64,000 bases of DNA, taken from contig CAIMCT010000101.1 in the NCBI GenBank assembly GCA_903839535.1, forward strand, positions 69 through 64,068, read 5' to 3'. Numbering within the stretch: the stretch's first letter is position 1; every line of letters starts with the position of its first letter. The notes under the pieces are model-generated. The model did not search any database, had not been told where the DNA came from, and saw only the letters and a program-made list of their open reading frames with translations. Origin of the DNA: an uncultured Desulfobacteraceae bacterium. GTDB taxonomy: Bacteria; Desulfobacterota; Desulfobacteria; Desulfobacterales; Desulfatirhabdiaceae. Both the position numbers and the translations under genes were made by a program. Shown here one piece after another: positions 1,100-42,236 of this stretch.

Positions 1100-1109
1100 T
1101 ACATAACCT

Positions 1110-1736: not shown

Positions 1737-1739
1737 GGC

Positions 1740-4700: not shown

Positions 4701-4865
4701 CGCACGATCCATCAACGTGAGCATACCGTTGGTGAAGAAGTTCTCCTCGAAAAACTCAGGACCGTTGACCTGCCCTTTAAGAAAAGTATCAAGGCTTAAA
4801 ACGGTGGCTCTTCTATCAGCAGCAAAAACAGACTGGCGTGGTTTGCAGAGGGAGTGGGTACTCAT
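1740..4865 (-). CDS. Large P-loop ATPase, DUF499-like (defence-island associated)
   Basis: 1041-aa ORF. Walker A GGGKTHS about 75 aa from the N-terminus, preceded by FFEENFFTNGMLTLMDRAF. Size and N-terminal pattern match what I recall of DUF499/COG1483 proteins. Confidence 0.65.
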   Translation of the reverse strand: MSTHSLCKPRQSVFAADRRATVLSLDTFLKGQVNGPEFFEENFFTNGMLTLMDRAFRHLCGSSVGSSVFQLSQAMGGGKTHSMIALGLLARDPELRRKILGEKDQTPRLGRCRVVGFNGRNTDAAGGIWGSIAEQLGKAEQFARYVSPLLNAPGPEAWKQLLGGKPLVLFLDELPTYLEYAVAVPVGNADLGVVTTTALANLFIAVAEMDKVCLVLSDLAGTNFSIGQANLEAAFNRAIQGITSESRRIAVPITPVNPNGDELYHILRKRLFEHVAPDVEIIKVAAAYRDALREANRMNLTTTLPEALYTRVIDAYPFHPDLRELVGKFKENEGFQQTRGVIRLMQMVVSSLWKSEKAADIDLIHPYDIDLNLDEIASEVRTINPSLSEAIAHDIAHGGDAEVEQIDIANGNSDASDAARLILVASLSTTPGAIHGLREYQLVDCLQRPGRDLSTFKANVIDKLATRAWYLHNSADGRLFFKNQQNIAAKLRSTALALHTETVDRMLREHLEEYFSASLRDCYQVVKVLPPPDEVHVEQEKTTLVIVRPGGQANQLPISADWQAWWSQQQYKNRSLFLTGSRDTFQKVLDSARQTCALQSIEEELKAEDTPSDDPQWRALDALHDRVGLQFTSVLKEAFDQIVYPSINSALRATGTDLAFAGNQSGEATIRKTLEGAQKFTIRIDDDSFRNRAEARLFGSPKTKVVLWSDFKRAAAVNTNWPLHKISALDDLKVECLRRGIWREEGNHIRRGPFPPPVPDVSIRELSEDGDGHTFLKVEPLHAPSIVYETGDADPTNASSPVPTPARFEATGLRYSFLAIDPADPGRVSAVKEWTAKIRLKYQLHHRGDHYEVELLALPKANGITIHYTTDGSSPASSGFATYNGPFRVSDNCRVVCAKAVASAYGLNSEIVRVPIPQKGQEEHTLDPEIPASWNQQTKLDDSGAAWDFIQRLENAAGVAVYDISLTAESSDGRQNVEYSGAREGGYDGAALKSVAVKLQEIVSGVSLRMTIGSLLFPTGQALLDWLRATSQPFDIAKVTQ

Positions 4866-6381: not shown

Positions 6382-7107
6382 CTATGCCTGAAGCACCCGT
6401 GAGGCAATGTCCGTTAGTGGCCTGAACATCTTCTTCAAGGCCAGGTGTCTCGTCAGATTTACTTCCGAAGATGACGCCACGGCATATTTAAAGTACAGCT
6501 TGGGATCATATAAAGTCAGATAAATGACCCGGACATCTTCCGCATCCAGAAGCTTTGCCTCCGGATACTTAGCCTTTACCTCGGCCAGTCGCTTTGCCGC
6601 AAGAACCTTCATCTCTTTTTCATCCCCAAAATTCATGGCGCCGGTCGGACATGTCTGCACGCAGGAGGGAATCAGCCCGTTGTGAACCCGGTCATTACAC
6701 ATATCGCATTTGGCCAGGGTTCCATCTGCGGATTTTCGGGGAATATTGTACGGACAAGACGAGATAATATCATCAGCATTCAGAAACCGGGTTTCTGCTG
6801 TATAAATGACCGCCCCGGTAACATCATCCTTGTACACGGCTCTGGTATCGCCGGCAGTATCCAGACATGGCGGCGAAATACAGTGCCGACACTGTTCCGG
6901 GAAAAACAGCCAATTGAGCTTTTTATTGATGACTTCTTCCCGCATACGGACGACCTTGTAGGTGTCAAAAGACAGATCCGGAGGATTTTCATTCGTCCCC
7001 CGGTTGGTGGTCATTTCCGCAGGAAGGTTATGCCACTGCTTGCAGGCCACCTGACAACCCCGGCAGGCGGTACAACTTGTCGTATCTACAAAAAATACCT
7101 TACTCAT
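6382..7107 (-). CDS. fdhB: Formate dehydrogenase iron-sulfur (beta) subunit
   Basis: Multiple 4Fe-4S cysteine clusters (CTACRGCQVACKQWH, CRHCISPPC, CDMCNDR, CVQTCPTGA). ATG at 7105-7107 is preceded by GGAGGTGG; the track's longer start at 7116 is GTG. Confidence 0.85.
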   Translation of the reverse strand: MSKVFFVDTTSCTACRGCQVACKQWHNLPAEMTTNRGTNENPPDLSFDTYKVVRMREEVINKKLNWLFFPEQCRHCISPPCLDTAGDTRAVYKDDVTGAVIYTAETRFLNADDIISSCPYNIPRKSADGTLAKCDMCNDRVHNGLIPSCVQTCPTGAMNFGDEKEMKVLAAKRLAEVKAKYPEAKLLDAEDVRVIYLTLYDPKLYFKYAVASSSEVNLTRHLALKKMFRPLTDIASRVLQA

Positions 7108-7122
7108 GGGCTCCACCTCCGG

Positions 7123-10100
7123 TTATAGTTTGGTTACATTGACCATAAAAGCTTTGGTTTCCGGAATTCGGGTATTGGGATCACCCGCGGATGGGGTAAG
7201 CAAATTTGCGCTTTCCTCCTTGCCGCTGGCCGGCCATCGCCACCCATAATTATACGGCATCCCCACCTGATGAACAACGGTTCCGGCAATCTTCATCGGC
7301 TTGAACCGCTTGGTTACAACCGCCGTACATTCCAGTGATCCGCGCGCCGAAGACACCTTGACCCGCTCGCCATTCTTGATGCCTTTAAGGGCGCCAAGCT
7401 CCTCGCTCATTTCCACAAACATCTGAGGCGCAAGTTCCATGAGCCAGGGCTGGGGACGGGTAAGAAGGCCGGTCTGCCAGTGTTCGGATACCCGGTAGGT
7501 CGTTCCCACATAAGGGAATCTGGGATCGCAGGTTGCGAAGGTATCGGCGCTGGTGCCGTAAACCGCTGCCGTGGGGCTGGTAAACTGGGAACTCATGAAG
7601 TTCTTTTCCACCGGGCATTCCATTGGCTCGTAATGTTCCGGAAAGGGTCCGTCAAGCAATCCAGGTCCAAAAATCTGACCGAAACCATGAACGGTCATGA
7701 TAAACGGATGCTTGGCTTTGGGATCAGGCTGACCATCGGCGCCGATCAGCGGCGGCGCAGGTCCGTCAGGAACATCTCCAATCCATTTACCGTCCTTCCA
7801 TTGGATGACCCAGCGTTTTTCGTCATAAGGCTGCCCTTTGGGATCAACCGAAGCCCGGTTGTAAATGATTCTGCGATTCACTGGCCATGCCCAGGCAAAC
7901 TCCGGATACAGGCCAATTTTGTTTGGCGCATCCTCCTGCTTTTTGCGGGCCGCCATGTTTCCTTTGTCCGTATAGCTGCCGGAGTAAATCCAGTTGCCGC
8001 AAGATGTGGACCCATCGTTTTGAAGAAATGCAAAACTGGGCACCTGAGATCCCATTTTGAATTCCTGGTCGCCGACTTTGACATCCTTGACAAAAAAACC
8101 GTTGATCTGTTTGGCCACCTTATGGGGATCAAATTTGTGGTCCGTCATGTAGTCCCACTTCAGATTCAGAATCGGATCCGGGAATACGCCGCTTTCCTTG
8201 TAAAGTTCTTTCAGCTTCAAACCGAGTTCCATGATGATGTCGCCATCCGGCAGACTGTTACCAAGAGGCTTGGGGCCTGCGTACCGCCACTGCATCCAGC
8301 GCCCGCTGTTGGAAATGCTGCCTTCCTTTTCAACCGAGACACAGGCGGGAAGCATGAAGACTTCCGTGGCCACATTCTCTGGAATCATCTCGGGGCCATG
8401 CCAGAAAGAACCGGTTTCATTGTCAAAGAGATTGACGTTTACCATCCATTCGAGATTGGCCAGAGCTTTGCGTACTTTTCCTGCATTGGAGCCGCTGCAA
8501 GCCGGATTCATACCCCAGGCAAAGAAACCTTTGATACTGCCTTTGAACATCTCATCAAAGATATCCAGCCAGGAATAAGGCTTGCCTTCATCCAGTTTGG
8601 GCATCCAGGGATATCCGAATTCGTTTTCAGCAGAAGCCTTGTCTCCGAAAAAAGATTTCAGAAGGCTGACGATATATTTGGGTTCGTTCTGCCACCAGTT
8701 CAGGCTGAGCGGATCCTTGCTCTGGGCTCTGCGCTTTAGCAGATCATCCAGTTTTGCCATTTTCCCACTCGGAGCGGGAATATAGCCGGGCCAGATATTA
8801 AACAGCAGAGCCTGGTCCGTTGATCCCTGCACATTGGATTCCCCCCTTAACGCATTTACGCCGCCGCCGGCAATGCCCATGTTCCCCAGAAGGAGCTGAA
8901 TAATGGACATGGTCCGAATATTCTGAACGCCCACTGTATGCTGTGTCCAGCCCATGGCATACATGATCGTACCAGCCTTGTTATTGGCACCGGTGGCTGC
9001 GTAGGTTTTATAAACTTCCAGCAGATCCGCTTCCGTGGTACCGGTAATTTTGGAAACCAGCTTGAGGTCATAGCGGTCATAATGTTTTTTCAAAAGATTG
9101 ATGACGCACTGACTGTCCTTCAGGGTCAAATCCCTTAAGAGTGCACCTTTTTCATCCAGTTGAAATGTCCAGGTCACCCTGTCATATTTCTTGATTTTGG
9201 AGTCCCAGCCGGAAAACAGACCGTCGTTGAATGAAAAATCCTTGTTTACCAGAAAAGCGGCATTAGTGTAATTCAGAACATATTCTTCGCCAATCAGCTT
9301 GTTATCCAGAATGTATTTGATCATCCCGCCCAGAAAAGCAATATCGGTTCCGGAGCGAAGCGGCGCATAGATATCCGCTTTTGAGGATGTTCTGGTGAAC
9401 CGGGGGTCAACGTTGATGACCTTGGCACCGTTTCTCTGGGCCTCAGTCACCCATTTGAAGGATATGGGATGGTTTTCAGCAGCATTGCTTCCCATAATCA
9501 GGATGCAGTCGCTATTTTTAAGGTCGATCCAGTGGTTAGTCATTGCACCGCGTCCGAACGACTCTGCCAGAGCCGCAACAGTTGCGCTATGTCAGATTCG
9601 GGCCTGATGCTCGATATAGACCAGCCCTAGGGAACGCAGCATGGCTTGATAAATCCAGCATTCTTCATTGTCCATGGCGGCGCTTCCGACAGAGGCTATG
9701 GCCGTTGTACGGTTGACGGTCTGCCCTGAGGCGTTGGCCTCTGTAAACGAGGCATCCCGCGTGGCTTTGACACGTCTTGCGATGCGGTCAATGGCCCATT
9801 CCCAGGTAACTTCCTGCCATTTTGTCGCATAAGGCGCACGATACATGGGGTTAAGAAGCCGGTTTTCGTTTTCAACCAACCCGGCCAGCGCAGCTCCTTT
9901 GGAACATAATGCTCCCCGGTTTATGACATGGTCCGGATCACCTTCGATGTTGATGACCCGTCCGTCCCCTTTTTTACTGGTATGTACAATGGCCCCGCAG
10001 CCCACCGCGCAGTAACAACATATCGTGGTGGTTTCTTTGGCATACTTGGTCTTCAACATCTGAGCATGGACTCTGACCGGTGATAGATCAAAACCATGAC

Positions 10101-10170
10101 CACCACTGACTGCAAGACCTGCAGCCGTAGCGCCGGTAATTTTAATAAAATCCCTTCGCGTTACATCCAT
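7123..10170 (-). CDS. fdhA: Periplasmic formate dehydrogenase catalytic (alpha) subunit, selenocysteine-containing, Tat-exported
   Basis: Track ORFs 9592..10170 and 7123..9543 are in the same frame, separated only by TGA at 9592-9594. The junction reads EHQARI-U-HSATVAALAESFGRGAMTNHW, the conserved Sec site of Mo/W formate dehydrogenases. Twin-arginine signal MDVTRRDFIK. N-terminal CCYCAVGC Fe-S motif. Confidence 0.9.
9561..9594 (-). other. UGA selenocysteine codon plus candidate SECIS stem-loop
   Basis: UGA at 9592-9594 (minus strand). 3' of it, ACUGUUGC / GCAGAGU can pair (7 bp, one bulged G) around a GGCUCUG loop. Folded by eye only. Confidence 0.6.
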
Positions 10171-31196: not shown

Positions 31197-31451
31197 ATGA
31201 AGCGTAAACACTGCAGAATCCTTGGACTGATCTTTGCGTATCCACTCAGCGCAAAGGTGAAATGGCGCGATATTGAACCGTTGTTCCGCGAGTTGGGTGC
31301 GGAGGTAACGGAAAGGGAAGGATCTCGTGTCGGTGTTCGGCTGTTTGGGGAACGAAAGGTGTTTCACCGTCCCCATCCGTCGCCCGATGCCGACAAAGGA
31401 GCAGTAGCGAGTATTCGCCAATGGTTTGAAAAGAATGGAGTGAAGCCATGA
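31197..31451 (+). CDS. hicA: HicA-family mRNA interferase toxin
   Basis: 84 aa; WRDIEPLFRELGAEVTEREGSRVGVRLFGERKVFHRPHP is a HicA/YcfA-like pattern. 4-nt overlap with hicB. Confidence 0.75.
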   Translation: MKRKHCRILGLIFAYPLSAKVKWRDIEPLFRELGAEVTEREGSRVGVRLFGERKVFHRPHPSPDADKGAVASIRQWFEKNGVKP

Positions 31452-31666
31452 TGAACGTTATGGAGATCAATGGAGTGAAGGCTGTTATCGCCTTCGACCC
31501 CGATATCAATATGTTCAGGGGTGAGTTTGTGGGGCTGAACGGCGGCGCCGATTTTTACTCAACCGATATCGATGGATTGCGCCGCGAAGGGGAAATCTCC
31601 TTGAAGGTCTTTCTTGATATGTGTGGCGATGTTATTCGTCATACCCATGACATCATCACCCATTAG
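31448..31666 (+). CDS. hicB: HicB-family antitoxin, apparently lacking the C-terminal DNA-binding domain
   Basis: INGVKAVIAFDPDINMFRGEFVGLNGGADFYSTDIDGLRREGEISLKVFLDMC is the HicB N-terminal domain. The ORF ends about 12 aa later with no RHH/HTH segment. Confidence 0.65.
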   Translation: MMNVMEINGVKAVIAFDPDINMFRGEFVGLNGGADFYSTDIDGLRREGEISLKVFLDMCGDVIRHTHDIITH

Positions 31667-31754
31667 TTATATCTGCGTTTAGCACTTGGTCACACCATGC
31701 TATCAATCTTTTCCATCTGGGCGATAAGATTAGACTGGCCATGTTAAATTTACC

Positions 31755-31820
31755 GCATAGGTCCACAAGCGTTGGCATTTTATCGTAACCTATTGAATTT
31801 AAGGTTTTTATTTAAAAATC
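31755..31820 (-). mobile_element. Repeat family C, half copy C1 (inverted right half)
   Basis: CGCATAGGTCCACAAGCGTTGGCATTTTATCGTAACCTATTGAATTT matches the reverse complement of 33724-33774 and 40240-40290. Confidence 0.8.
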
Positions 31821-31838
31821 AGAAAAAAGGATAGTGAG

Positions 31839-33488
31839 ATGAAATTGAAAAGATGTTTTTTTGTAATGGCATGTTCTTTTATAATTATGATATCAGGTAC
31901 GGCAATGGCTCAGCCACAACCCCCGGTGTTAAGCGTCAAGCATATTGGTTGGGTGTACCTCTCATGGACCGAAGTCACGGGCGCGACGGGTTATACCCTG
32001 TCTTATGCCCCAATGTCCTATACGGGTTCGGAGTCCATCGTAAGCGTGGATATGGGAACTCAAAAAAGCCTCTCAGGCGAACTACCGGCTGGTGCCGCCT
32101 TCTATGTGGCGGTCCAGTCCCGAGACAACACCGGCATCAGCCAATACTCCAACATTGTATCGGTTGCAGATGATGACACAATTCTTAAACAGATCATCAT
32201 CTTTGGCCGCCACAGCGTACGCTCATCCACAGATGCCCCATCCAGCTTGGCCCAGTTTGCAGTTGACCCTTACCCTGACTTCGTCGGGGTCCCGACGGGC
32301 TACCTGACCCCCCGCGGGCGGCAGGCGGCAGGCCTGCTTGGCTCCTATTTCCATGACTATCTGCTCCATGAAGGGCTTCTTACGGGCGACGCACAAACAG
32401 ATATATCTCTTTCGTATTTCCGCGCCAATTCCATTCAGCGATCCAATATTACCGCTGCCAAATTCGGGACAGGGTTGATCCCGGGTGCAACGATACCGGT
32501 TCACTCCTATAGGATTGCCGATGGCAATACGCCTGCCGAGCCCGACCCTGTTTTCGATCCCATTTTAGCAAACGTGGTAAAAGTTGACCCTGTCCGCGCT
32601 GTGACCGAAGTTCAAGGAATTTTCAATAGTGGATCAGCAATAGCGTCCGCTTACAGCGGCGAGCTTTCCCTAATCCGTAGTGTACTCTATCCGCCAGGAA
32701 CACAGCCAACACCCGATGCCCCCCATGGCTCGACTGATCCAACTTCTCAAACCTCTCACCCGATTACGCTTACTGCCAGTACATCTACGATGTACACAGG
32801 AGGCGTGATCAATTTGGGCGGACTGGGTTTAATATTTTCAGCAGCCGACCCGTTTGTCATGCAATACGCAGATAACTTCCATCCCAATGATGTGGCTTGG
32901 GGCCGACTTTCATTGGATGCTATTTCCCAACAGACCCGGATCACAAGCCTTATTTTCAACATTGAAATGCTTTCGCCCTACCTCAATCAGGCGCAAAGCT
33001 CAAACGCCGCCTCGCACGTACTTCGCACCATGGAGCAAGCTGTAATTGGCGAAAACATTCCCGGAGCATTTGGGAATGCGAGCTCACGGTCGGTCGTAAT
33101 TATCAGTTCTGATGCCTACGTGGCAGGATTGGCAGGACTTCTTAAGCTGCACTGGATACTGCCCGGCTATCAACCGGATTTTTGTGCTCCGGGCGGATCA
33201 CTCATTTTTGAACTGCGACAATCGAAAAGATCGCAAGAGTATCTTGTTCGCGCGTTCTACACCGCACAAACCTTCGACCAACTGCGTAATCTGACACCAC
33301 TGACACTTGAGAATCCACCTGCAGCAATGCAGCTTCTGATTCCGGGCGGCAGTAAATCAGCCACGGATTTAGATGTCAATTTTTTCACCTTTCAAACGAT
33401 TATGAAGAATGCATTGAATCCGGAATATGTACAAAATCCTTCGGTAGAGATTCCACCCGGCGTGTTAACCGGTGTCCCCTTGGAATAA
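31839..33488 (+). CDS. Secreted protein: shared leader module (signal peptide + FN3-like) fused to a histidine acid phosphatase (branch 2) domain
   Basis: Signal MKLKRCFFVMACSFIIMISGTAMA. Module PQPPVLSV...GWVYLSWTEVTGATGYTLSYAP...QYSNIVSV. Then IIIFGRHSVRSS (RHGxRxP-like) and a later SSDAYV region. Confidence 0.75.
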   Translation: MKLKRCFFVMACSFIIMISGTAMAQPQPPVLSVKHIGWVYLSWTEVTGATGYTLSYAPMSYTGSESIVSVDMGTQKSLSGELPAGAAFYVAVQSRDNTGISQYSNIVSVADDDTILKQIIIFGRHSVRSSTDAPSSLAQFAVDPYPDFVGVPTGYLTPRGRQAAGLLGSYFHDYLLHEGLLTGDAQTDISLSYFRANSIQRSNITAAKFGTGLIPGATIPVHSYRIADGNTPAEPDPVFDPILANVVKVDPVRAVTEVQGIFNSGSAIASAYSGELSLIRSVLYPPGTQPTPDAPHGSTDPTSQTSHPITLTASTSTMYTGGVINLGGLGLIFSAADPFVMQYADNFHPNDVAWGRLSLDAISQQTRITSLIFNIEMLSPYLNQAQSSNAASHVLRTMEQAVIGENIPGAFGNASSRSVVIISSDAYVAGLAGLLKLHWILPGYQPDFCAPGGSLIFELRQSKRSQEYLVRAFYTAQTFDQLRNLTPLTLENPPAAMQLLIPGGSKSATDLDVNFFTFQTIMKNALNPEYVQNPSVEIPPGVLTGVPLE

Positions 33489-33625
33489 TCCGGAGTCCGC
33501 TATGAAAACGATGAGCATCATGCTAAGGGAAGCTTTCATGATAGCGCGAGCAAGAATGCTTCAAGCTGTTCAGGGAGTGAAATTATATTCCAGGAGTGCA
33601 TTGCCAGGATGGCAGAAACCGGTAT

Positions 33626-33774
33626 CGCATAGGTCTATAAGTTTTGGCATCTTCAGTTCGGATATATGTCTAACCATTTGAAAAAAGGATATAATTTCAT
33701 TTTTTTGTTTTTTTAAACAAAAGTCTCAAATTCAATAGATTACGATAAAATGCCAACACTTGTGGACCTATGCG
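33626..33774 (+). mobile_element. Repeat family C, full copy C2 (149-bp MITE-like element)
   Basis: Terminal inverted repeats CGCATAGGTCTATAAGTTTTGGCAT / ATGCCAACACTTGTGGACCTATGCG. The interior is about 85 percent identical to C3 by eye. Confidence 0.85.
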
Positions 33775-33818
33775 AAATTTACATACAAGAAAATTACTTT
33801 AAAACGAAGGAGAGCTGC

Positions 33819-35885
33819 ATGAAATTGAAAAGATATTTTTTTATAATGACCTGTGCTTTTATGCTTTTAATATCAGGCACGGCAAATGCTCAGCCTCAAC
33901 CCCCGGTATTAAGCGTCACAAATGGGAGTTGGGTGTACATCTCATGGACCGAGGTTTCGGGCGCAGCGGGTTATATCCTTACATTAGCCCCAATGCCCTA
34001 TACGGGTCCGGCATCGCTCGTTAGCATTGATATGGGAACTCAAAGAAGCTTGTCGGGTGGTGAACTTCCAGCCGGCTCCGCCTTCTATGTGGCGGTTCAG
34101 TCCCTCGATAGTTCAGGAGTAAGCCAATACTCCAATGTCGTATCGGTTATCATGGGATCATACCCGATTGCTGCGGATGTTTTCACGACAGTTCAGAAAA
34201 CGGTTTCACCCGTGGCATTGTCTTTGAACACGCCTCAGATTTCCCCGGCGGATATTTCTCTGTACGATATTTTCGGTTACAGCGCGTGGCAGGAAGGACC
34301 CGGTCTCTCTTTGGTTAAAAGGACGGATATTATGCCAGCCGGCTACTCGGGTGCATCGGTCATAAATGCGAATCGCCTTTTGCGTTTATTTACAATAACA
34401 GACATTCATATCACAGATAAAGAATCTCCGGCTCAGGTGATTTACTACGGTTGGTCCGCACCGCTTGGCACGGACGGCACCCTTTATATTGGCGCTTATT
34501 CTCCGATTATTTCCTATACAACTCATTTCCTCGACGCTGCTATCCAGACGGTCAATGCCCTCCACAATCAGACTCCGTTTGATTTCGGCATCTCTCTTGG
34601 CGATAATTGCAACAACACACAGTATAACGAACTGAGATGGTTTATCGATGTCATGGATGGCAAAGAAATCACCCCCAGTTCAGGGGCTCATCTTGGAGCG
34701 AACACGATTGATTATCAGAAACCCTACAAAGCAGCCGGACTCAACAAATTAATTCCCTGGTATCAGGTTGTTGGCAACCACGATCAGTATCTTACGGGTC
34801 TTTTGCGTGAGAGCGATTACATTAGAAGTCTCCATGTCGGTGATACGATCTTCAACTACAGCCTTGATTTCGCGTCACCAAGTCCTTATAACAAAGGTTA
34901 TTATATGGGCGTGGTCGATGGAACGACACCCGACGGGAATATCAGAGGCGCAGGGCCGGAAGCGTATTTCGCGACACCACCAAAGGTAGTCGCAGATCCA
35001 GACCGCCATTCTCTTAGCACAATAAATGTCGTGGGCAAAAGTATAACGGGCTCCTCGACGTTGAATTGGATGAATGAATTTTTTACTACCACGTCAAGTC
35101 CGGTGGGTCACGGATTCATGCAGACCAACATCGAAAACGACTTTGCCTGCTATACCTTCGATCCAAAAGCTAATATGCCGATCCGGGTCATTGCGCTCGA
35201 TGATACTTGCAAGGCAAATGTCAATGCGGAATTCCCTTATGATGGTATGGGTTGTATCGACCAAGCCCGGTACGAATGGCTTGTAAGAGAGCTTCAGAGA
35301 GGTCAGGACGATGGCATGCTCATGATCATCGCCGCTCATATACCGATCGCACCTCAAACGAGCCTTACGAATCCGACACCCACACCGATGTTCTACGTTC
35401 CCCCCACCACCGACCCCTACGTTCCTCCAGTCCGCGACCCCCATTCCATTAAAACCGATAATGAATTACTTGCCACACTCCACAACTATCCGAACCTCAT
35501 CCTGTGGATCGCAGGGCATCGTCATTTAAACGTCATAACGGCACAACCGTCCCCCGATTCCGCCCATCCCGAATACGGTTTCTGGGAAGTCGAAACCGCA
35601 TCGCTCAGGGACTTTCCCAAGCAGTTTCGCACTTTCGATATCGTCCGTAACAATGACAATACCATTTCAATAATTGCAGTAGATGTTGATCCCGCAGTCA
35701 AGGACGGATCTCTCGCGGAGCGATCGCTTTCGTATGCAATCGGGATTGGCAGGATATCGGTTGGCCTCTCCAGCTTCGAAGACACTACATCCCAGGCCTA
35801 TAATGCGGAGCTTGTCAAACAATTAAGTCCAGCGATGCAAACAAAGATCGCAAATTACGGATCGCCGATGGCGACCACCCAATGA
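33819..35885 (+). CDS. Secreted protein: shared leader module fused to a calcineurin-like metallophosphoesterase
   Basis: AAGGAG RBS and ATG at 33819 (the track start 33750 lies inside element C2). Metallophosphoesterase motifs ITDIH, GDNCNNTQYNE, VVGNHD, AAHIP, GHRH. Confidence 0.8.
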   Translation: MKLKRYFFIMTCAFMLLISGTANAQPQPPVLSVTNGSWVYISWTEVSGAAGYILTLAPMPYTGPASLVSIDMGTQRSLSGGELPAGSAFYVAVQSLDSSGVSQYSNVVSVIMGSYPIAADVFTTVQKTVSPVALSLNTPQISPADISLYDIFGYSAWQEGPGLSLVKRTDIMPAGYSGASVINANRLLRLFTITDIHITDKESPAQVIYYGWSAPLGTDGTLYIGAYSPIISYTTHFLDAAIQTVNALHNQTPFDFGISLGDNCNNTQYNELRWFIDVMDGKEITPSSGAHLGANTIDYQKPYKAAGLNKLIPWYQVVGNHDQYLTGLLRESDYIRSLHVGDTIFNYSLDFASPSPYNKGYYMGVVDGTTPDGNIRGAGPEAYFATPPKVVADPDRHSLSTINVVGKSITGSSTLNWMNEFFTTTSSPVGHGFMQTNIENDFACYTFDPKANMPIRVIALDDTCKANVNAEFPYDGMGCIDQARYEWLVRELQRGQDDGMLMIIAAHIPIAPQTSLTNPTPTPMFYVPPTTDPYVPPVRDPHSIKTDNELLATLHNYPNLILWIAGHRHLNVITAQPSPDSAHPEYGFWEVETASLRDFPKQFRTFDIVRNNDNTISIIAVDVDPAVKDGSLAERSLSYAIGIGRISVGLSSFEDTTSQAYNAELVKQLSPAMQTKIANYGSPMATTQ

Positions 35886-35890
35886 GCAAC

Positions 35891-35962
35891 TATACTGCGA
35901 ACGGACATAATTTACATTTTTGAACCCCGACCCCGCCCCGACCCTCCTCCGCTGGGGGAGGT
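35891..35962 (-). mobile_element. Repeat family B, partial copy B3 (one arm plus core)
   Basis: TATACTGCGAACGGACATAATTTAC...CCCCGACCCCGCCCCGACCCTCCTCCGCTGGGGGAGG. No second arm. Confidence 0.65.
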
Positions 35963-36060
35963 AGTTTATTGAAGTTTTGATGGTGGATGCACAAGAATAA
36001 GCCTAAGAATAGTATCAATTCACCTGCGAATATCTATAACAAAAAACAAAGGAGAACAGT

Positions 36061-38118
36061 ATGAAATTGAAAAAACATTTTATTGTAATGGCCTGTGCTT
36101 TTATGCTTTTGATATCAGCTACAGCTTATGCTCAGCCTCAACCCCCGGTGTTAAGCGTCACGAATGGAAGCTGGGTGTACCTTTCCTGGAACGAAGTCAC
36201 GGGCGCAACGGGTTATACTCTGACTTTTGCACCAATGCCCTATACTGGTCCGGCATCCCTCGTTAGCGTGGATATGGGAACTAAAAGAAGCTTGTCGGGT
36301 GGTGAACTTCCAGCCGGCTCCGCCTTCTATGTGGCGGTTCAATCCCTTGATAGTTCAGGAGTAAGCCAATACTCCAATGTCGTATCGGTTATCATGGGGT
36401 CATACCCGATTGCGGCGGATGTTTTCACGACAGTCCAGAATACGGTTTCCCCAATTGCATTGTCTTTGATCACGACACAGATTTCTCCTGCGGATCTCAC
36501 ACTGTACGATGTCTTCGGTTACAGTGCGTGGCAGGAAGGTCCCAGCCTGTCTGTGATCAAGCGGACCGACATTATGCCAGCCGGCTACTCGGGCGCATCG
36601 GTCACAAATACGGGTCGCCTTTTGAATTTCTTCTCCATGACCGACATCCATATAGCAGATAAAGAATCTCCAGCTCAGGGGAACTACTACGGCTGGTCCG
36701 CTACGTTTGGTTCAGATGCGTCGGGCGGCAACCATTCTTCAGCGTATTCACCGGTAATTTGCTATACGACTCAGGTTCTTGACACCGCCGTCCAGACGGT
36801 CAACGCCATTCACAATCAGAGGCCGTTTGATTTCGGTATTTTTCTTGGCGATGCGGTCAACAACACTCAGTATAACGAACTCAGATGGTATATCAATGTT
36901 CTGGATGGCAAGGAAATCACCCCCAGCTCCGGCAGTCACATCGGATCAGGCAATATCGATTACCAGAAACCCTACAAGGCGGCCGGACTCAACAAATCGA
37001 TCCCGTGGTATCAGGTCGTTGGCAACCACGATCAATTTTATATGGGTACCTTCCTTGTGAACGATTACATCCGGAATCTCTATGTCGGCGATACTATCCA
37101 AAACGCAAGCAGCAATATGAACCTAACCCCAAGCCCCGATAATCACGGTTATTATATGGGCGTGGTTGACGGTTCGACACCCGACGGGATCATCAGAGGT
37201 GTAGGACCGGAAGCGTACTTCACGTCACCCCCGAAGGTGATCGCCGATCCGCTCCGCCATTCGCTTAGCACGACAAATGTCTCGGGCGCCAGTACGTCAG
37301 GCTCCTCGACCTTGAATTGGATGAATGAATTCTTCAATACCACTTCAACTCCGGTGGGCCACGGATTTACACAAACCAATATCGAGAGCGACTTCGCCTG
37401 CTATACCTTCGAGCCGAAGACAAATATGCCGATCCGGGTAATCGTACTTGATGACACATGCAAGGCTAGTGCCAGTGCAAGTCCTCCTTATTATGCAAGG
37501 GGTTGTATCGATCAGATACGTTACGACTGGCTTGTAAGTGAACTTGATAGAGGTCAGGCCGAAGATATGCTCATGATCATCGCAGCGCATATACCGATCG
37601 GAGTGCAAACAAATCTCACAAATCCGGTGATAGAAAATATATTCTACGTACCGCCCACGCCTGATCCCCATTCCATTAAAACTGATAGCCAATTACTCGC
37701 CACGCTCCACAACTATCCGAATCTCATGCTGTGGATTGCAGGACATCGTCACATGAACACCATTACGCCACAACCGTCATCCGATCCAGCCCATCCTGAA
37801 TCCGGCTTCTGGGAGGTCGAAACCGCTTCGCTCAGGGATTTTCCCCAGCAGTTCCGCCGCTTCGATATCGTCCGCAACAGCGACAATACCATTTCAATCG
37901 TTGCAATAGATGTAGATCCAGCAGCCAAGGAAGGGTCGCTTGCAGATATATCTCGTTCGAAAGCAATCGGGATTGCAAGAATATTGGTTGGCCTGTCCAC
38001 CTTCGGCGATACCACGTCTCATGCCTACAATGCGGAGCTTGTAAAACAATTGACCCCTGCGATGCAGGCCAAGATCGCAAACTACGGATCGCCGATGGCG
38101 GGGACCACGGGTGATTAA
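36061..38118 (+). CDS. Secreted protein: shared leader module fused to a metallophosphoesterase (paralogue of 33819..35885)
   Basis: Collinear with the preceding gene over the full length (MTDIH, GDAVNNTQYNE, VVGNHD, AAHIP, GHRH). Confidence 0.8.
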   Translation: MKLKKHFIVMACAFMLLISATAYAQPQPPVLSVTNGSWVYLSWNEVTGATGYTLTFAPMPYTGPASLVSVDMGTKRSLSGGELPAGSAFYVAVQSLDSSGVSQYSNVVSVIMGSYPIAADVFTTVQNTVSPIALSLITTQISPADLTLYDVFGYSAWQEGPSLSVIKRTDIMPAGYSGASVTNTGRLLNFFSMTDIHIADKESPAQGNYYGWSATFGSDASGGNHSSAYSPVICYTTQVLDTAVQTVNAIHNQRPFDFGIFLGDAVNNTQYNELRWYINVLDGKEITPSSGSHIGSGNIDYQKPYKAAGLNKSIPWYQVVGNHDQFYMGTFLVNDYIRNLYVGDTIQNASSNMNLTPSPDNHGYYMGVVDGSTPDGIIRGVGPEAYFTSPPKVIADPLRHSLSTTNVSGASTSGSSTLNWMNEFFNTTSTPVGHGFTQTNIESDFACYTFEPKTNMPIRVIVLDDTCKASASASPPYYARGCIDQIRYDWLVSELDRGQAEDMLMIIAAHIPIGVQTNLTNPVIENIFYVPPTPDPHSIKTDSQLLATLHNYPNLMLWIAGHRHMNTITPQPSSDPAHPESGFWEVETASLRDFPQQFRRFDIVRNSDNTISIVAIDVDPAAKEGSLADISRSKAIGIARILVGLSTFGDTTSHAYNAELVKQLTPAMQAKIANYGSPMAGTTGD

Positions 38119-38129
38119 GATTGAATAAG

Positions 38130-38152
38130 GCTCGTCCTTTCTGAGGACGAGC
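38130..38152 (+). terminator. Stem-loop terminator candidate between paralogues 3 and 4
   Basis: GCTCGTCC-TTTCTGA-GGACGAGC, 12 nt after the stop. Followed by TTGACATAATGAA, a possible promoter for the next gene. Confidence 0.45.
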
Positions 38153-38193
38153 AGTTGACATAATGAACCAACATCAAAACGAAGGAGAACAGT

Positions 38194-40113
38194 ATGAAAT
38201 TTAAAAGGTGCCTTTTTGTAATGGTCTGTGCTTTTATGCTTTTAATATCAGGCACAGCTTATGCTCAGCCTCAACCCCCGGTGTTAAGCGTTACAAAGGG
38301 AAGTTGGTGGGTGTATCTTTCCTGGACAGAAGTTGTAGGAGCAACGGGTTATACCCTGTCTTACGCCCCAATGCCCTATACTGATCCGGCATCCATCGTG
38401 GCCGTGGATATGGGAACTCTAAGAAGCTTGTCTGTGGAACTTCCGGCTGGTGTCGCCTTCTATGCGGCAGTCCAGTTCCGCGATAGTACCGGCTTAAGCC
38501 AATACTCCAACATTGTATCGGTTATCGGAGGCTCATATCCCACCGACATAATTGCGCGCGCCGCTAAATTGCCGGCGAAAGACATGTCGCAGAGTCTGCT
38601 CTACGACAACCTGCTGGAATGGGAAAAAGCAGTGGTGGCCAAGATGGTGCAGGCAGCGGCCTACATGGATGCCGCATATTGGCGGCAAGTAGATCCGGAA
38701 GGTGAAAAGTTGTGGCGCAGCCTTGCTTGGGCAAGTACATCGCTTGAAAAAGCGGTTTACACGATGCTTGATGCCAACTACGGAAGGTGGGACAGGTTTC
38801 TGAATTTTGCATCCTTTGTCGGCGCAATTGAACGTCCTCCCGGAGGGTATGTCTATCCTGCTGATCTTACCAAAAGCGAGTTGGATGCCTACATCGCGGC
38901 CCATCCAATGGAAAAGGATGCTCTGCTAAACCCGTTCACCGTGGTGCGGCGCAGTGGCGAAAAACTGGTGACGATACCGTATCACCAAGAGTACGCAGAG
39001 TTTGTGGACCCCACCGCCTTGCTGCTGTTCGAGGCTGCGGAGCTTTCCCAAAATCCGACCTTGACCAAATACCTGCGTCTGCAAGCCCAGGCGCTGCGCA
39101 GCGACAATTACTACGAAGCCAACATTGCCTGGCTTGATCTGAACTGCAACATAGATGTCAGCATCGGACCGCATGAAATATATGACGACCAGCTTACCGG
39201 GCAGAAAGCGTTTTACAAGACCAATGTGTTGCTTGTGGATCAGTCAGCCGCAGCGCAGCTCGCAAAATACAAGTCAACCGGTCCGGCTCTGCAGGAAAAT
39301 CTGCCGGTTGACCCCAAATACAAACCTGTTTACAAGGCGGACACCATGATGCCGCTGCTCCTGGCGGATGACATACGCCGCTCCGGCCAGGGACGCGCCA
39401 TCATGGAACCGGTAGCCTTCAGTCTGCCCAACGACCCCAAGGTCTGGGCTGCCAAAGGCTCAAAAAAGGTGATGATGGGTAATTATCTGACCACCCGGCG
39501 CACTGTAGTGCTTGAACCCTTGGCGAAGGTCATCCTGGACCAGTCCGTGACCGCCATGATAGATCATGAAGCCTATTTCACCTGGGTGCTGATGCATGAG
39601 GTCTGTCATACCCTTGGGCCCAGAGAAGTCGTGAAAGGCGGTCAAACTGTGACACCAAGAGAGGCGCTGGGAGAATATTACTCTCCCATCGAAGAAGGCA
39701 AAGCCGATATCGGTGGCCTTTACAACATTCCCTATCTTATCAGCCATGGGCTTATCACTGCTCCACTTGAATGGCACTACGCCGGATTCATGGCGGAATC
39801 GCTCCGTTCGATCCGTTTCGGAATGGGTTCTCCTTATGGTGTCATACGTTCCGCCGCCTGGAACATATTTCTGGATAAGGGGGCTCTGGTGTACAACCCC
39901 GTCAGCAACCGCTTTAACATGGATGTACCCAAGATGACCGCTGCGATCCGTGAATTGCTGATCACCCTGATCACTATAGAAGGGGATGGGGACACTACTG
40001 CTGCAGCCAACCTTATCAATACATATTCCAACATTCGGCCCGAACTGAAGAAACTACTTGATGCGGCCGAAAATTCAGTGCCGCTGGAGTTCGTGCCAGT
40101 GTATGCGAAGTAG
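38194..40113 (+). CDS. Secreted protein: shared leader module fused to a DPP III (M49)-like zinc hydrolase domain
   Basis: Same signal peptide and FN3-like module. Then HEVCHTLGP (HExxH) and EEGKADIGG (EExKAD), as in the dipeptidyl-peptidase III / Nudix-associated family. Confidence 0.7.
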   Translation: MKFKRCLFVMVCAFMLLISGTAYAQPQPPVLSVTKGSWWVYLSWTEVVGATGYTLSYAPMPYTDPASIVAVDMGTLRSLSVELPAGVAFYAAVQFRDSTGLSQYSNIVSVIGGSYPTDIIARAAKLPAKDMSQSLLYDNLLEWEKAVVAKMVQAAAYMDAAYWRQVDPEGEKLWRSLAWASTSLEKAVYTMLDANYGRWDRFLNFASFVGAIERPPGGYVYPADLTKSELDAYIAAHPMEKDALLNPFTVVRRSGEKLVTIPYHQEYAEFVDPTALLLFEAAELSQNPTLTKYLRLQAQALRSDNYYEANIAWLDLNCNIDVSIGPHEIYDDQLTGQKAFYKTNVLLVDQSAAAQLAKYKSTGPALQENLPVDPKYKPVYKADTMMPLLLADDIRRSGQGRAIMEPVAFSLPNDPKVWAAKGSKKVMMGNYLTTRRTVVLEPLAKVILDQSVTAMIDHEAYFTWVLMHEVCHTLGPREVVKGGQTVTPREALGEYYSPIEEGKADIGGLYNIPYLISHGLITAPLEWHYAGFMAESLRSIRFGMGSPYGVIRSAAWNIFLDKGALVYNPVSNRFNMDVPKMTAAIRELLITLITIEGDGDTTAAANLINTYSNIRPELKKLLDAAENSVPLEFVPVYAK

Positions 40114-40142
40114 TTTTGATTTACTCGGCGCTTTCATCCTTC

Positions 40143-40290
40143 CGCATAGGTCCACAAGTTTTGGCATCTTCTGTTCGTATATGTCTAACCATTTGAAAAC
40201 AGGAGTTAATTTCAATTTTTCCTGATTATTAAATAAAAGTCTCAAATTCAGTAGGTTACGATAAAATACCAACACTTGTGGACCTATGCG
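40143..40290 (+). mobile_element. Repeat family C, full copy C3 (148-bp MITE-like element)
   Basis: Terminal inverted repeats CGCATAGGTCCACAAGTTTTGGCAT / ATACCAACACTTGTGGACCTATGCG, 30 nt after the stop of paralogue 4. Confidence 0.85.
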
Positions 40291-40292
40291 GG

Positions 40293-40661: not shown

Positions 40662-42236
40662 TCACTGGTGCAGTATCATAATATCATCCGTGATGGTAAA
40701 GAGCTGTTCCAGACGGGTCAATTGCAGCAGCTTTAGCACTCCGTCCGTGGGTGCGCAGAGGATGCAGCTCTTGCCGTGTGCTATTACGGCCCGCTGAATT
40801 TTGACGAACAGCACCAGTCCGGAGCTATCAACAAAATTGAGTGCATGCAGATCCAGTAAGCAGTTGTGACCCGAAACCGCTACGCAAATTGCAGTTATAT
40901 CGAAGTTTTTGAGGCTAAGAGCGTCCAGCCGTCCCTCTATCGTGACAATGGCGGTACCATCTTTTTTGTATGTAACGGAGGATGGAAGTTCCTTCCCCGC
41001 AATTTTGGCTTGGTGCAAATCCATCGAATTCAGATATTGCTTCGCCAGTTGAAGATCGCGGAAACTATTATCTCCTATAAGATCGTCCAGTCTGCTTAGA
41101 GCAAATGTTCGGCGTATATCGTCATTCATACCGGCCATCAACAGCACTTTATTCAGATTCAATGCAGTGCGCCACATCTCAACAATAAACCCAAGCCCCA
41201 TGGAATCTATAAAAACCACCTGAGTGAAATCAAGGATCAGGGCATGTTCACTCTGCCAGATAGTTTCAATAGTGCTGCTCAGATTTCGCACTCCGAGGGC
41301 ATCAAGCCGCTCCGGAAGCGTCATCGATAATTTATCCACTTCAGAAGAAAGTAGCTGTTCAGGCTTTGTCGGTTCCACCTGCATTTTGGGGGCCCTCCAC
41401 GTTGGCTGATAGCAAGTAATAAGCCTTCGCTGTCGGTGATAATCCATAACTGCCGGCCAGAGTTGCAGACCAAAGGTCATGATTGCTCGCAAATAGCGCC
41501 GCCAAAGCCGTATCGGTTCGACCGCCAGTCGCCAAAGCCACTCCAGTCCGATCCGCTGTATTGCCAGCGGTGCGCGACTGATATCACCGGCAATGAAGGA
41601 AAAGGTTCCACCGATGCCAATGGAAAGCGGAACCTTCAGACGGGTGACGTTTCGTCTGAACCAGAGTTCCTGCTTGGGATTGCCGAAAGCAATTAAAAGG
41701 ATATCCGGTGCTGCGGCATTCACATCCGCCACGATAGCCGCGTCCTCTTCCTCATAAAATTCAAGATGTTCCCCTTCTGTATAGACTATTGGAGACAAAA
41801 CGCCGGCAATCTTCAGGCCTGGGTTGCGCTTCAGCAAGATATTGGCTGCTCGTTCTGCGGAATTGGTCTGCCCACCCAGAAAGTAGAGCGAAAGCCCCTC
41901 TCTCGCCGCCCGTGTTGCCAGAGCAGGAACCATATCGGCCCCTGTTACACGTTCCGGCAGAGGGTTTCGCAGCATCCTGGACAGCCAGACAATTGGCATT
42001 CCATCCGCTGTTACCAGATCAGCACGCCGCAGGATATCCAGCAGCTCGGCATGGCGAATCTCGCTTAATCGTTTGCCCATGGTTTGTACTATGAAATCCA
42101 CATTAACGGTTGCTACCAGCTTCGGTATTCCATCCCGGCGTGACTCCGCCACCAGGTCGACAATTTTATCCATCGCCTGGGATAAAGTCAGGCTATCGAT
42201 CGGCACCCCCAGGATTATGACACTGTCTCTTTGCAT
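40662..42236 (-). CDS. WecB/TagA/CpsF-family glycosyltransferase fused to two C-terminal STAS domains
   Basis: ILGVPID, ADLVTADGMPIVW, FLGGQ, FGNPKQELW and GLEWLWRLAVEPIRLWRRYL are TagA/WecG hallmarks. Then LDFTQVVFIDSMGLGFIVEMWR and LDLHALNFVDSSGLVLFVKIQR, which are STAS cores. Confidence 0.85.
   Translation of the reverse strand: MQRDSVIILGVPIDSLTLSQAMDKIVDLVAESRRDGIPKLVATVNVDFIVQTMGKRLSEIRHAELLDILRRADLVTADGMPIVWLSRMLRNPLPERVTGADMVPALATRAAREGLSLYFLGGQTNSAERAANILLKRNPGLKIAGVLSPIVYTEGEHLEFYEEEDAAIVADVNAAAPDILLIAFGNPKQELWFRRNVTRLKVPLSIGIGGTFSFIAGDISRAPLAIQRIGLEWLWRLAVEPIRLWRRYLRAIMTFGLQLWPAVMDYHRQRRLITCYQPTWRAPKMQVEPTKPEQLLSSEVDKLSMTLPERLDALGVRNLSSTIETIWQSEHALILDFTQVVFIDSMGLGFIVEMWRTALNLNKVLLMAGMNDDIRRTFALSRLDDLIGDNSFRDLQLAKQYLNSMDLHQAKIAGKELPSSVTYKKDGTAIVTIEGRLDALSLKNFDITAICVAVSGHNCLLDLHALNFVDSSGLVLFVKIQRAVIAHGKSCILCAPTDGVLKLLQLTRLEQLFTITDDIMILHQ

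Follow-up and report, generated by a model that had tools for sequence, protein, structure and literature searches.

A probable portable leader cassette of signal peptide and FN3 domain on four tandem genes for predicted exported enzymes in an uncultured Desulfobacterota bacterium

Since the 1990s, bacterial exoenzymes have been known to share fibronectin type III (FN3) domains by shuffling. Bork and Doolittle in 1992, and Little, Bork and Doolittle in 1994, reportedly described such shuffling among the extracellular hydrolases of bacteria. SLH domains and dockerins are further examples of targeting modules shared by exoenzymes. The pectate lyases PelI and Pel3 of Dickeya and Pectobacterium combine an N-terminal Fn3 with a catalytic domain and are secreted by type II secretion machinery (T2SS); the key signals for this secretion are loop 3, a betaC-betaC' loop of 9 residues that folds into a 3-10 helix and makes contact with both GspC and GspD, and next to it loop 5 (E-F) (PMC7949064). 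The erp genes of Borrelia (OspE/F/Elp, 'upstream homology box'), which lie on prophage plasmids, join a common leader to unrelated mature parts and show frequent recombination between paralogs; among the parts shared there are the promoter, a lipoprotein leader and a sorting signal 5 aa long (PMC10016077). Here we describe a cluster of four genes from an uncultured freshwater Desulfobacterota bacterium, contained in a 64-kb stretch of DNA that we call the window and whose positions are used as coordinates throughout. The four genes share one N-terminal leader, which is fused to a histidine acid phosphatase (HAP) in g1, to metallophosphoesterases (MPE) of the TIGR03768 family in g2 and g3, and to a dipeptidyl-peptidase III (DPP III) in g4.

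Comparison with homologs that lack the leader showed that a single cassette has apparently been copied by recombination at domain boundaries onto unrelated genes for exported proteins, displacing their native leaders. As with the shuffled FN3 of exoenzymes, a module of the same fold and the same extracellular context appears to have moved between unrelated secreted enzymes by recombination. However, the signal peptide and the ribosome-binding site (RBS) here travel with FN3 and replace the native leader, the place of glycoside hydrolases as partners is taken by phosphatases, a peptidase and a cytochrome, and ongoing gene conversion between paralogous leaders could be documented. The locus resembles PelI and Pel3 in its order of signal peptide, one FN3, short linker and enzyme, and in a C-C' loop of 9 residues with a predicted short helix. 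This likeness is one of architecture and loop geometry only, with no sequence relationship established, and Fn3 occurs there in one enzyme family and here on four. Like the Borrelia erp genes, the cluster has one leader recombined onto unrelated mature parts, but the shared unit starts at the RBS without a promoter, consists of a Sec signal and a folded 88-aa domain, and is chromosomal. With SLH domains and dockerins it has in common a constant non-catalytic module on many secreted enzymes of one organism; it differs from them in its fold, its diderm host, its N-terminal position and its travelling with a signal peptide, and its partner is only putative.

The cassette opens with ~20 nt that include the RBS; these are followed by a Sec-type signal peptide of 24 aa and a domain of ~88 aa, which together make ~110 residues. 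A preliminary description of this DNA had reported a shared N-terminal module of ~110 aa, had put its DNA identity at 80-85% by eye, and had let the homology start ~15 nt upstream of the ATG, include the AAGGAG RBS and end abruptly. Alignment and BLAST agreed with all of this after small corrections of the numbers. Pairwise nucleotide identity of the leaders was 79-82%, and 89% for g2-g3. In the four-way alignment and by BLAST, similarity begins ~20 nt 5' of each ATG (CAAAAC.AAGGAG...), with unrelated DNA further upstream, and it stops sharply at ...GTATCGGTT (..SV), which is codon 109 in g1 and codon 110 in g2 to g4. Six extra codons, I(M/G)GSYP, are common to g2, g3 and g4. With no more than ~20 nt of common DNA ahead of the ATG, the genes share the RBS but not the promoter. 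The RBS stretch of g1 runs straight on from a truncated copy of an element resembling a miniature inverted-repeat transposable element (MITE). The program used to list open reading frames (ORFs) starts g2 at an ATG at 33750, inside another copy of this element; we took 33819 as the start, which aligns with the three other starts and is preceded by the shared AAGGAG. Searches with tblastn found the four leader copies in the window with E values of 2e-51 to 3e-74, and no fifth copy in the 64 kb.

The replacement of a native leader was clearest for g4. The module occurs on DPP III in only one 90%-identity cluster, of 19 members. Module-less DPP III genes lie in unrelated genomic contexts. Among them, the next homologs are proteins of 551-554 aa with 85% identity over the catalytic part, and they start with a lipoprotein-type leader and a Gly/Ser tether, ...FLANGC followed by SDSNGGGSIYSPDIIVRAAKLPAKDMSQS (also given as ..FLANGC followed by SDSNGGGSIYSPDII). 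The lipoprotein leader and tether are swapped in g4 for the signal peptide and FN3, joined as ...SVIGGSYP to TDIIARAAKLPAKDMSQS. At the DNA level the junction falls in a short stretch (GG. TC. TA. CC., encoding G-S-(x)-Y-P) that resembles both the linker of the MPE genes (IMGSYP) and the lipoprotein tether (GGGS[I/T]YPPD). This sequence is compatible with a crossover mediated by microhomology, the putative donor being a leader of MPE type.

A second replacement was found in the HAP family, in which about a dozen clusters bear the module. After these come module-less homologs of 450-480 aa with up to 82% identity, which JGI annotates as 4-phytase/acid phosphatase and which have a plain Sec signal, ...PVLA followed by QTIKDADDGTTLKQIIIFGRHS (..PVLA before QTIKDADDGT). 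The cassette took the place of this signal peptide and ~5 mature residues in g1, giving ...NIVSV joined to ADDDTILKQIII. A tree of HAP catalytic domains was built by neighbour joining (NJ) from Kimura distances over 414 ungapped columns, with 300 bootstraps. Module-bearing HAPs were monophyletic in 0/300 bootstraps. Four module-less HAPs with ancestral-type leaders were nested among the module-bearing ones in 274/300, and three of these four grouped with two module-bearing HAPs in 254/300. The non-monophyly of the module-bearing HAPs therefore indicates that the leader was gained or exchanged more than once within the family. For the TIGR03768 family, module-less leaders were sought in a plasmid collection; the one homolog returned, from Streptomyces, is 27% identical and has a Tat signal.

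We further compared the leaders of g2 and g3 with those of the closest genome, the metagenome-assembled genome (MAG) ELA676, in which g2-g3 are present at 95.4% nucleotide identity (locus L003) and g1 at 93.4% on another contig (L013). Nucleotide differences were counted separately for codons 1-56, codons 57-112 and the enzyme part. The g2 orthologs of the two genomes differed by 18.5%, 11.9% and 2.5% in these parts respectively, so that their leaders differ by ~15% versus 2.5% for the enzyme (p = 4e-18). The g3 orthologs differed by 0.6%, 5.4% and 4.9% and were homogeneous along their length (p = 0.15). Between g2 and g3 the differences were 16.7%, 4.8% and 21.7% within the window, and 2.4%, 13.1% and 21.7% within ELA676; the low values mark the converted segments, which depart from the enzyme part with p = 5e-9 for the 4.8% of the window and p = 2e-12 for the 2.4% of ELA676. 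Site by site, g3 states were found in the g2 of the window from about +170 to +320 and in the g2 of ELA676 from about -10 to +170. The comparison showed two independent tracts of g3-to-g2 conversion in sister lineages, both lying within the leader only. Among the four window copies, parsimony-informative sites conflict in the first ~190 nt, a pattern that we read as a signature of recombination. The ratio of nonsynonymous to synonymous divergence (dN/dS) of FN3 was 0.14-0.27 versus 0.20 for the MPE catalytic part, and FN3 is therefore under purifying selection comparable to that on the enzyme. The suggestion of the preliminary description that the module is spread or homogenised by recombination thus found support in the leader replacements, the non-monophyletic module-bearing HAPs and the two conversion tracts.

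The signal peptide, as read from its residues, has a positive n-region, a hydrophobic stretch of ~15 residues and small residues at -3/-1. That of g1 consists of MKLKR, CFFVMACSFIIMISG and TAMA, followed by QPQPP, and g2 to g4 have NA or YA before the Q. It is predicted to be of the Sec/signal peptidase I type, with cleavage between A-x-A and QPQPP, which would leave pyroGlu-PQPP at the mature N-terminus. A Cys at codon 12, in the middle of the hydrophobic region (..VMAC.., ..IMTC.., ..VTAC..), is kept in nearly all leaders (g1-g4 and loci L001-L037). Lipoprotein processing at this Cys was considered and rejected, as 11 residues precede it, the hydrophobic stretch goes on beyond it and a canonical AxA site lies downstream.

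The similarity of the four leaders goes beyond the level of a signal peptide, and alignment and structure prediction delimited a discrete domain of ~88 aa that is predicted to form a seven-stranded FN3 sandwich. AlphaFold with 48 subfamily sequences gave seven strands at pLDDT 90.3 and pTM 0.80; the four window copies only gave pLDDT 38, and the confident model needed the 48-sequence alignment. The best 50 Foldseek matches in the PDB were all FN3 domains, with TM 0.65-0.79 and probability 1.0. The Pfam profile fn3 (PF00041) matches the window copies over its full length (3-86 vs profile 4-83/84), but with scores of 17.4 and 15.4 bits, below the gathering threshold of 25 bits, and FN3 was not reported by the Pfam/NCBIfam scans of full-length g1-g4; other members of the same subfamily exceed the threshold (35.7-47.9 bits). 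The core residues of the fold are kept in 137 subfamily segments, W20 of strand B in 99% and Y29 of strand C in 97%. On the strength of the model, what follows the signal peptide in the module is a true FN3 domain.

An exhaustive HMMER search of 1.84 billion representative proteins returned 1650 at E<=1e-3 and 478 at E<=1e-10, with the signature W..V.GATGY.L.YAP.PY.GP..I.S.DMG...S..LW.GA.FYVAVQAY...G.S.YSNIE or, written more loosely, W..V.GATGY.L.YAP.PY.GP..I.S.DMG...S..L(W/P).GA.FYVAVQ....G.S.YSN. The FN3 subfamily is distinctive, wide and apparently uncurated. Its architecture was surveyed in the 151 best-scoring matches. The domain stands right after the signal peptide in 77/151 and at the C-terminus in 34/151, and occurs in at least three copies in 28/151; copies per protein reach 14 under a stricter per-domain threshold, and the HMMER search matched up to 37 stretches in one protein. 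Partners include LRR, MopE-like, PKD, CAP, PD40 propeller, cyclophilin, metzincin-like and cytochrome domains. The C-C', E-F and F-G loops have 2.5-2.6 bits vs 1.9-3.3 bits for the strands, and thus are equally conserved, which is unusual for FN3. Positions P37, G40, L60, G63, S79, S82 and N83 are conserved in 85-100% of sequences. The modelled C-C' loop reads MPYTGPASL, has a short helix and bears the subfamily signature, and the E-F loop reads ELPAG. A word-indexed protein search with 4 fragmentary matches had suggested that the leader was extremely rare, and this was overturned by HMMER and by scans of genomes and metagenomes. The fragmentary proteins (P0001-P0004) are explained by frameshifts in ENA ERZ25039503 contig_55632; this contig (L001/L002) has the same genes with many frameshifts, probably long-read indel errors.

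With one genome per species, the scan of genomes located the leader in 11 MAGs, at 14 loci altogether. These come from lakes, groundwater and soils, and each bears the label Desulfobacteraceae, Desulfatirhabdiaceae or 'Deltaproteobacteria'. A scan of JGI metagenomes added 20 further loci. The partners were mostly TIGR03768 phosphoesterases, often in tandem pairs, and also HAP and DPP III; at the metagenome loci the only partner domains were MPE, HAP and DPP III. The cassette is native to TIGR03768 genes of a Desulfobacteraceae/Desulfatirhabdiaceae clade. An additional partner came from a Desulfatirhabdiaceae MAG (L014, 10001-~11880; cluster P0053, also P0306), whose divergent copy of the leader, at ~60% identity, stands on a multiheme c-type cytochrome of ~510 aa. 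This protein has ~9 CxxCH motifs, a match to MtrC/MtrF domain II/IV and a poly-Asp or poly-Gly tail, features that suggest an extracellular electron-transfer protein using the FN3 leader. The search of other genomes proposed in the preliminary description thus yielded MPE, HAP, DPP III and an MtrC-like cytochrome as partners.

The catalytic parts of g1-g4 had been assigned to three unrelated folds, and profile and structure matches confirmed HAP, two MPE paralogs and DPP III. The catalytic part of g1 scored 39.4 bits against His_Phos_2 (PF00328; cut-off 23.6). It matched the phytase structures of Hafnia, Yersinia and E. coli, with AppA/Hafnia best at E 5e-35 and the others weaker, and it scored 144.6 bits (E 3e-42) against the AppA equivalog model NF007552, missing the cut-off of 585 bits. 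By these scores g1 is related to AppA, not an AppA equivalog. Its nucleophile motif RHSVRSS keeps the RH..R core, with G->S and P->S relative to RHGXRXP, and RH[SG][IV]R is found throughout the family (120 homologs). The C-terminal proton-donor motif aligns as SD at residues 424-425 (IISSDAYVAG vs IAGHDANIAN of 4ARO), with the Asp kept and the His replaced. SD was present in 42/42 homologs in which the motif was found (among P0307-P0426, JGI annotation 4-phytase) and is therefore a subfamily trait. Mature g1 has one Cys only, and thus lacks the disulfides of enterobacterial phytases.

The products of g2 and g3 scored 615 and 622 bits respectively against TIGR03768 (cut-off 387.4) and are 76% identical in amino acids. 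Both carry DIHI(T/A)D (DIHITD in g2), GD, GNHD, AAHIP and GHRH, so that the calcineurin-like metal-binding set (DxH, GD, GNH[DE], H, GHxH) is complete in each. We found neither a solved structure of TIGR03768 nor literature on the family. Two DPP III structures match residues 133-637 of g4 from end to end, those of Caldithrix abyssi (CaDPP III, 6EOM; E 3.7e-94) and Corallococcus (CoDPP III, 5ZUM; E 7e-83). The Pfam DPP III score was 22.7 bits (cut-off 21), and the zinc motifs HEVCH and EEGKAD stand at residues 468 and 500 respectively. By sequence g4 belongs to the HEXXH-type subgroup of DPP III (M49), and its role as a peptidase is a prediction. Dipeptidyl-peptidase activity has been measured for both relatives; in CaDPP III, residues 1-18 are predicted to be a signal peptide and Cys19 comes next, and CoDPP III was found among the extracellular proteins of culture supernatant (PMC5805324, PMC9820243). 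The catalytic part of g4 thus resembles these exported enzymes from end to end, including HEXXH and EEXKAD, but the place of a short leader of lipoprotein or Sec type is taken by the FN3 leader in g4 and its cluster at >=90% identity.

The tight tandem of four genes was shown to be specific to the lineage of the window. ELA676 has g1 in an unrelated context, with similarity to the window extending from 31827 (12 nt before the ATG) to 33527. Its g4 is deleted: only the last 39 codons are left, ~10 nt past the g3 stop (L003 12005-12121 vs window 38127-39990), and the DNA downstream of this remnant is unrelated to the window. Another relative has HAP and the MPE pair ~15 kb apart. With g1 elsewhere and g4 deleted in ELA676, the four-gene set is therefore not a conserved functional unit.

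The MITE-like element is ~150 nt long and has 29-nt terminal inverted repeats (CGCATAGGTCCACAAGTTTTGGCAT...) with arms 86-90% complementary; matches to the terminal repeat numbered 5 in the window versus 0 expected. The preliminary description had the four genes bracketed by MITE-like elements. The elements are real, but their layout is not a simple bracketing: a half copy precedes g1, and full copies lie in the gap between g1 and g2 and after g4 (Table 1). As the half copy ends exactly at the g1 cassette, the breakpoint of the relocation that brought g1 in lies inside a copy of the element. The terminal repeat had no copy in the 16 related loci L001-L016, and there was no clear target-site duplication at either full copy. 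In other annotations, the element or its vicinity holds small ORFs, one of 59 aa and one of 51 aa.

Table 1. Positions of the four genes, their leaders and associated features in the 64-kb window
Feature	Position	Strand	Basis
g1: leader + histidine acid phosphatase/4-phytase-like enzyme, 549 aa	31839-33488	+	ORF list, Pfam/NCBIfam, structure matches
g2: leader + TIGR03768 metallophosphoesterase, 688 aa from aligned ATG	33819-35885	+	ORF list, NCBIfam, motifs
g3: leader + TIGR03768 metallophosphoesterase, 685 aa, g2 paralog	36061-38118	+	ORF list, NCBIfam, motifs
g4: leader + HEXXH-type dipeptidyl-peptidase III (M49), 639 aa	38194-40113	+	ORF list, Pfam, structure matches, motifs
Cassette RBS region	31819-31838 (g1), 33799-33818 (g2), 36041-36060 (g3), 38174-38193 (g4)	+	DNA alignment
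g1 leader: signal peptide codons 1-24 + FN3 to ..NIVSV; junction SV / ADDDTILKQ	31839-32165	+	alignment, BLAST
g2 leader: signal peptide + FN3 to SV at 34148, then IMGSYP	33819-34166	+	alignment, BLAST
g3 leader, putative donor in both conversion events	36061-36408	+	alignment, conversion analysis
g4 leader; junction ..SVIGGSYP / TDIIARAAKL	38194-38541	+	comparison with module-less homologs
Conversion tract in g2, g3-like in window (95-98% identity), not in ELA676 ortholog	33988-34140	+	
MITE-like inverted right-half copy, cut off where g1 cassette begins, abuts g1 RBS	31753-31831	-	
MITE-like full copy, 29-nt terminal inverted repeats, between g1 and g2	33625-33775	+	
MITE-like full copy downstream of g4	40142-40291	+	
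Terminator-like hairpin after g2	35943-35961	+	consensus match only
Perfect 9-bp hairpin (GCTCGTCCT/AGGACGAGC), 12 nt past g3 stop, no T-run	38130-38152	+	sequence inspection

Scans of the window for promoter and terminator consensus sequences stayed at the level of shuffled sequence (14 vs 13.5 and 11 vs 9.6), and we therefore make no claim of an operon; Rfam had no matches in the window. Several neighbouring features were recorded. Just upstream of the cluster (31197-31667) lie a gene for a HicA-family toxin (84 aa) and an overlapping short ORF of 72 aa in the position of the HicB antitoxin, which has no Pfam match and looks truncated. Downstream, from 40662-42236 on the minus strand on to ~62 kb, there is a Wzx/Wzy-type polysaccharide cluster (GT2/GT4s, flippase, Wzy-like, Wza-like and GH5-like), whose first gene encodes an unusual fusion of a WecG/TagA glycosyltransferase with two STAS domains. 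A molybdopterin oxidoreductase gene (FdhA-like; 7123-10170, minus strand) is split by an in-frame TGA at 9592-9594 in the motif HQARI-U-HSATVAALAESFGRGAMTNHW; the position of this TGA inside the classic HQARI-U motif indicates a selenocysteine-containing enzyme. A gene for a 4Fe-4S subunit adjoins it at 6382-7116. At 68-4865 on the minus strand, a Fic-domain protein stands beside a DUF499 protein of 1041 aa with a C-terminal Fn3-associated/CHB_HEX_C domain, and this pair could be a defence or mobile-element module.

Taking the observations together, we think it probable that the locus holds a portable leader cassette on exported enzymes which was spread by recombination. The products of g1-g4 would be exported via Sec and their signal peptide cleaved. 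FN3 would stay on the mature enzymes as a common, partner-independent determinant of their later fate, and would be recognised for transport across the outer membrane or for surface display. Outside the cytoplasm, the enzymes would scavenge phosphate (through the phytase-like phosphatase and the phosphoesterases) and peptides (through DPP III). An earlier hint at organophosphate or nucleotide scavenging holds in part: g1-g3 are of phosphatase and phosphoesterase type, but g4 falls in a peptidase subgroup, the window has no Pho genes and the set is not conserved.

As to the role of FN3, we tentatively prefer that it is recognised so that the enzymes cross the outer membrane or are displayed on it, a view drawn by analogy and held with less than even confidence. 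It is favoured because a lipoprotein leader was replaced on DPP III and FN3 also stands on the MtrC-like cytochrome, because the N-terminal Fn3 of PelI/Pel3 carries T2SS signals, and because the 9-residue C-C' loop with its short helix and the E-F loop are conserved. Characterised relatives of MtrC are T2SS-dependent surface lipoproteins. Several points weigh against this account. Leader function, cleavage, localisation and secretion are predictions from sequence and model, and the 64-kb window has no T2SS genes. The conserved loops are rich in Pro and Gly and could be structural, and the enzymes may be simply periplasmic, like E. coli AppA. The HAP pattern comes from NJ only and could reflect losses followed by re-acquired plain leaders, not multiple gains. 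The synonymous divergence (dS) among the paralogous FN3 parts is 0.3-0.7, with 0.79 for the g2-g3 enzyme part; homogenisation is therefore occasional, not strong concerted evolution. Finally, bacterial FN3 domains are often seen as inert spacers.

The last point leads to a possible reading that we rather doubt, namely that FN3 is a passive spacer or a folding or solubility domain, which spread by easy recombination among neighbouring genes while the signal peptide is what matters. FN3 is common and promiscuous in bacterial exoenzymes, the partners at this locus are heterogeneous, and no dedicated machinery was found nearby in the 64-kb window. The Fn3 of PelI, moreover, is without effect on catalysis (PMC7949064). 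A passive role fits poorly with purifying selection on FN3 as strong as that on the catalytic domain, with the repeated acquisition of the cassette by genes that already had working leaders, with loops unusually conserved across a subfamily whose partners are unrelated, and with the strong bias of that subfamily to the position right after the signal peptide.

It is unlikely, in our judgement, that the FN3 leader ties the enzymes to the surface of the cell or to an extracellular matrix (LPS, EPS or S-layer) in place of a lipid anchor, in the manner of SLH domains and dockerins. The loss of a lipoprotein leader on DPP III would agree with such an anchor, as would the presence of the leader on the MtrC-like cytochrome, whose family normally consists of surface lipoproteins, and the large Wzx/Wzy exopolysaccharide cluster directly downstream. 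But the signal peptide that was replaced in the HAP family was that of an ordinary soluble protein, the adjacency to the exopolysaccharide cluster is not kept in the closest relative, and the binding of a ligand is putative.

We hold it equally improbable that the cluster is a co-regulated Pho-type operon for phosphate starvation whose shared 5' region serves common regulation. This would account for the phytase-like g1, the phosphoesterases g2 and g3, and the tandem, co-oriented arrangement of the genes. The shared region contains the RBS but not the promoter, however, g4 is of a peptidase family, and there are no pho or pst genes in the 64 kb. Nor is the gene set conserved, given the separate location of g1 and the deletion of g4 in ELA676 and the distance between HAP and MPE in the other relative, and the promoter and terminator scans were uninformative.

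The tentatively preferred outer-membrane role can be sharpened further. The FN3 subfamily would then be a dedicated, portable N-terminal outer-membrane sorting tag, read through its C-C' and E-F loops by a common machinery. Such a tag would be the N-terminal counterpart of C-terminal tags such as the C-terminal domain of the type IX secretion system and PEP-CTERM, and it would account for the repeated exchange of good leaders for this one. In this strict form the proposal is quite unlikely to hold.

Two remaining explanations can be set aside. An array of polymorphic toxins or effectors, with a constant N-terminal trafficking domain, variable toxin C-termini and immunity genes, is superficially similar in its constant N-terminus, swapped C-termini and tandem genes, but is highly improbable and was rejected, because the C-termini are hydrolases, large and of housekeeping type, with close homologs that have ordinary leaders for export, and because there are no immunity-sized ORFs between the genes except those borne by the MITE-like element. 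An assembly artefact from collapsed or chimeric repeats might be suspected in a MAG-like source contig with a related long-read contig full of frameshifts, but it has next to no probability: the copies differ by 11-21% and would not collapse, the adjacency of MPE and DPP III recurs in L018, L019, L023 and L024, and misassembly is excluded because the same gene order (hybrid kinase, HicA, short ORF, HAP, MPE, MPE, DPP III, WecG-STAS...) recurs in the independent assemblies ERZ1426597 and ERZ18667937.

The shuffling of FN3 among exoenzymes and an N-terminal Fn3 on T2SS substrates (PelI/Pel3) are already known, and the locus is a clear, well-documented instance of domain shuffling rather than a new type of system. 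New are the overwriting of functional Sec and lipoprotein leaders by a cassette of RBS, signal peptide and FN3, the occurrence of this cassette on four unrelated protein families within one clade, its repeated acquisition within one family, and the conversion tracts caught in sister genomes. For the study of evolution, the locus shows with unusual clarity how an entire export leader behaves in nature as a transferable cassette. For annotation, it explains why most such proteins are labelled 'hypothetical', since their FN3 falls below the Pfam threshold, and it reveals a subfamily of ~1650 members without a curated model. If FN3 is indeed a determinant of secretion or display, it would provide a portable tag for Desulfobacterota and would generalise the finding on T2SS substrate recognition made with PelI/Pel3. 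For ecology, the enzymes point to the extracellular acquisition of phosphorus and peptides by uncultured relatives of sulfate reducers in freshwater and groundwater.

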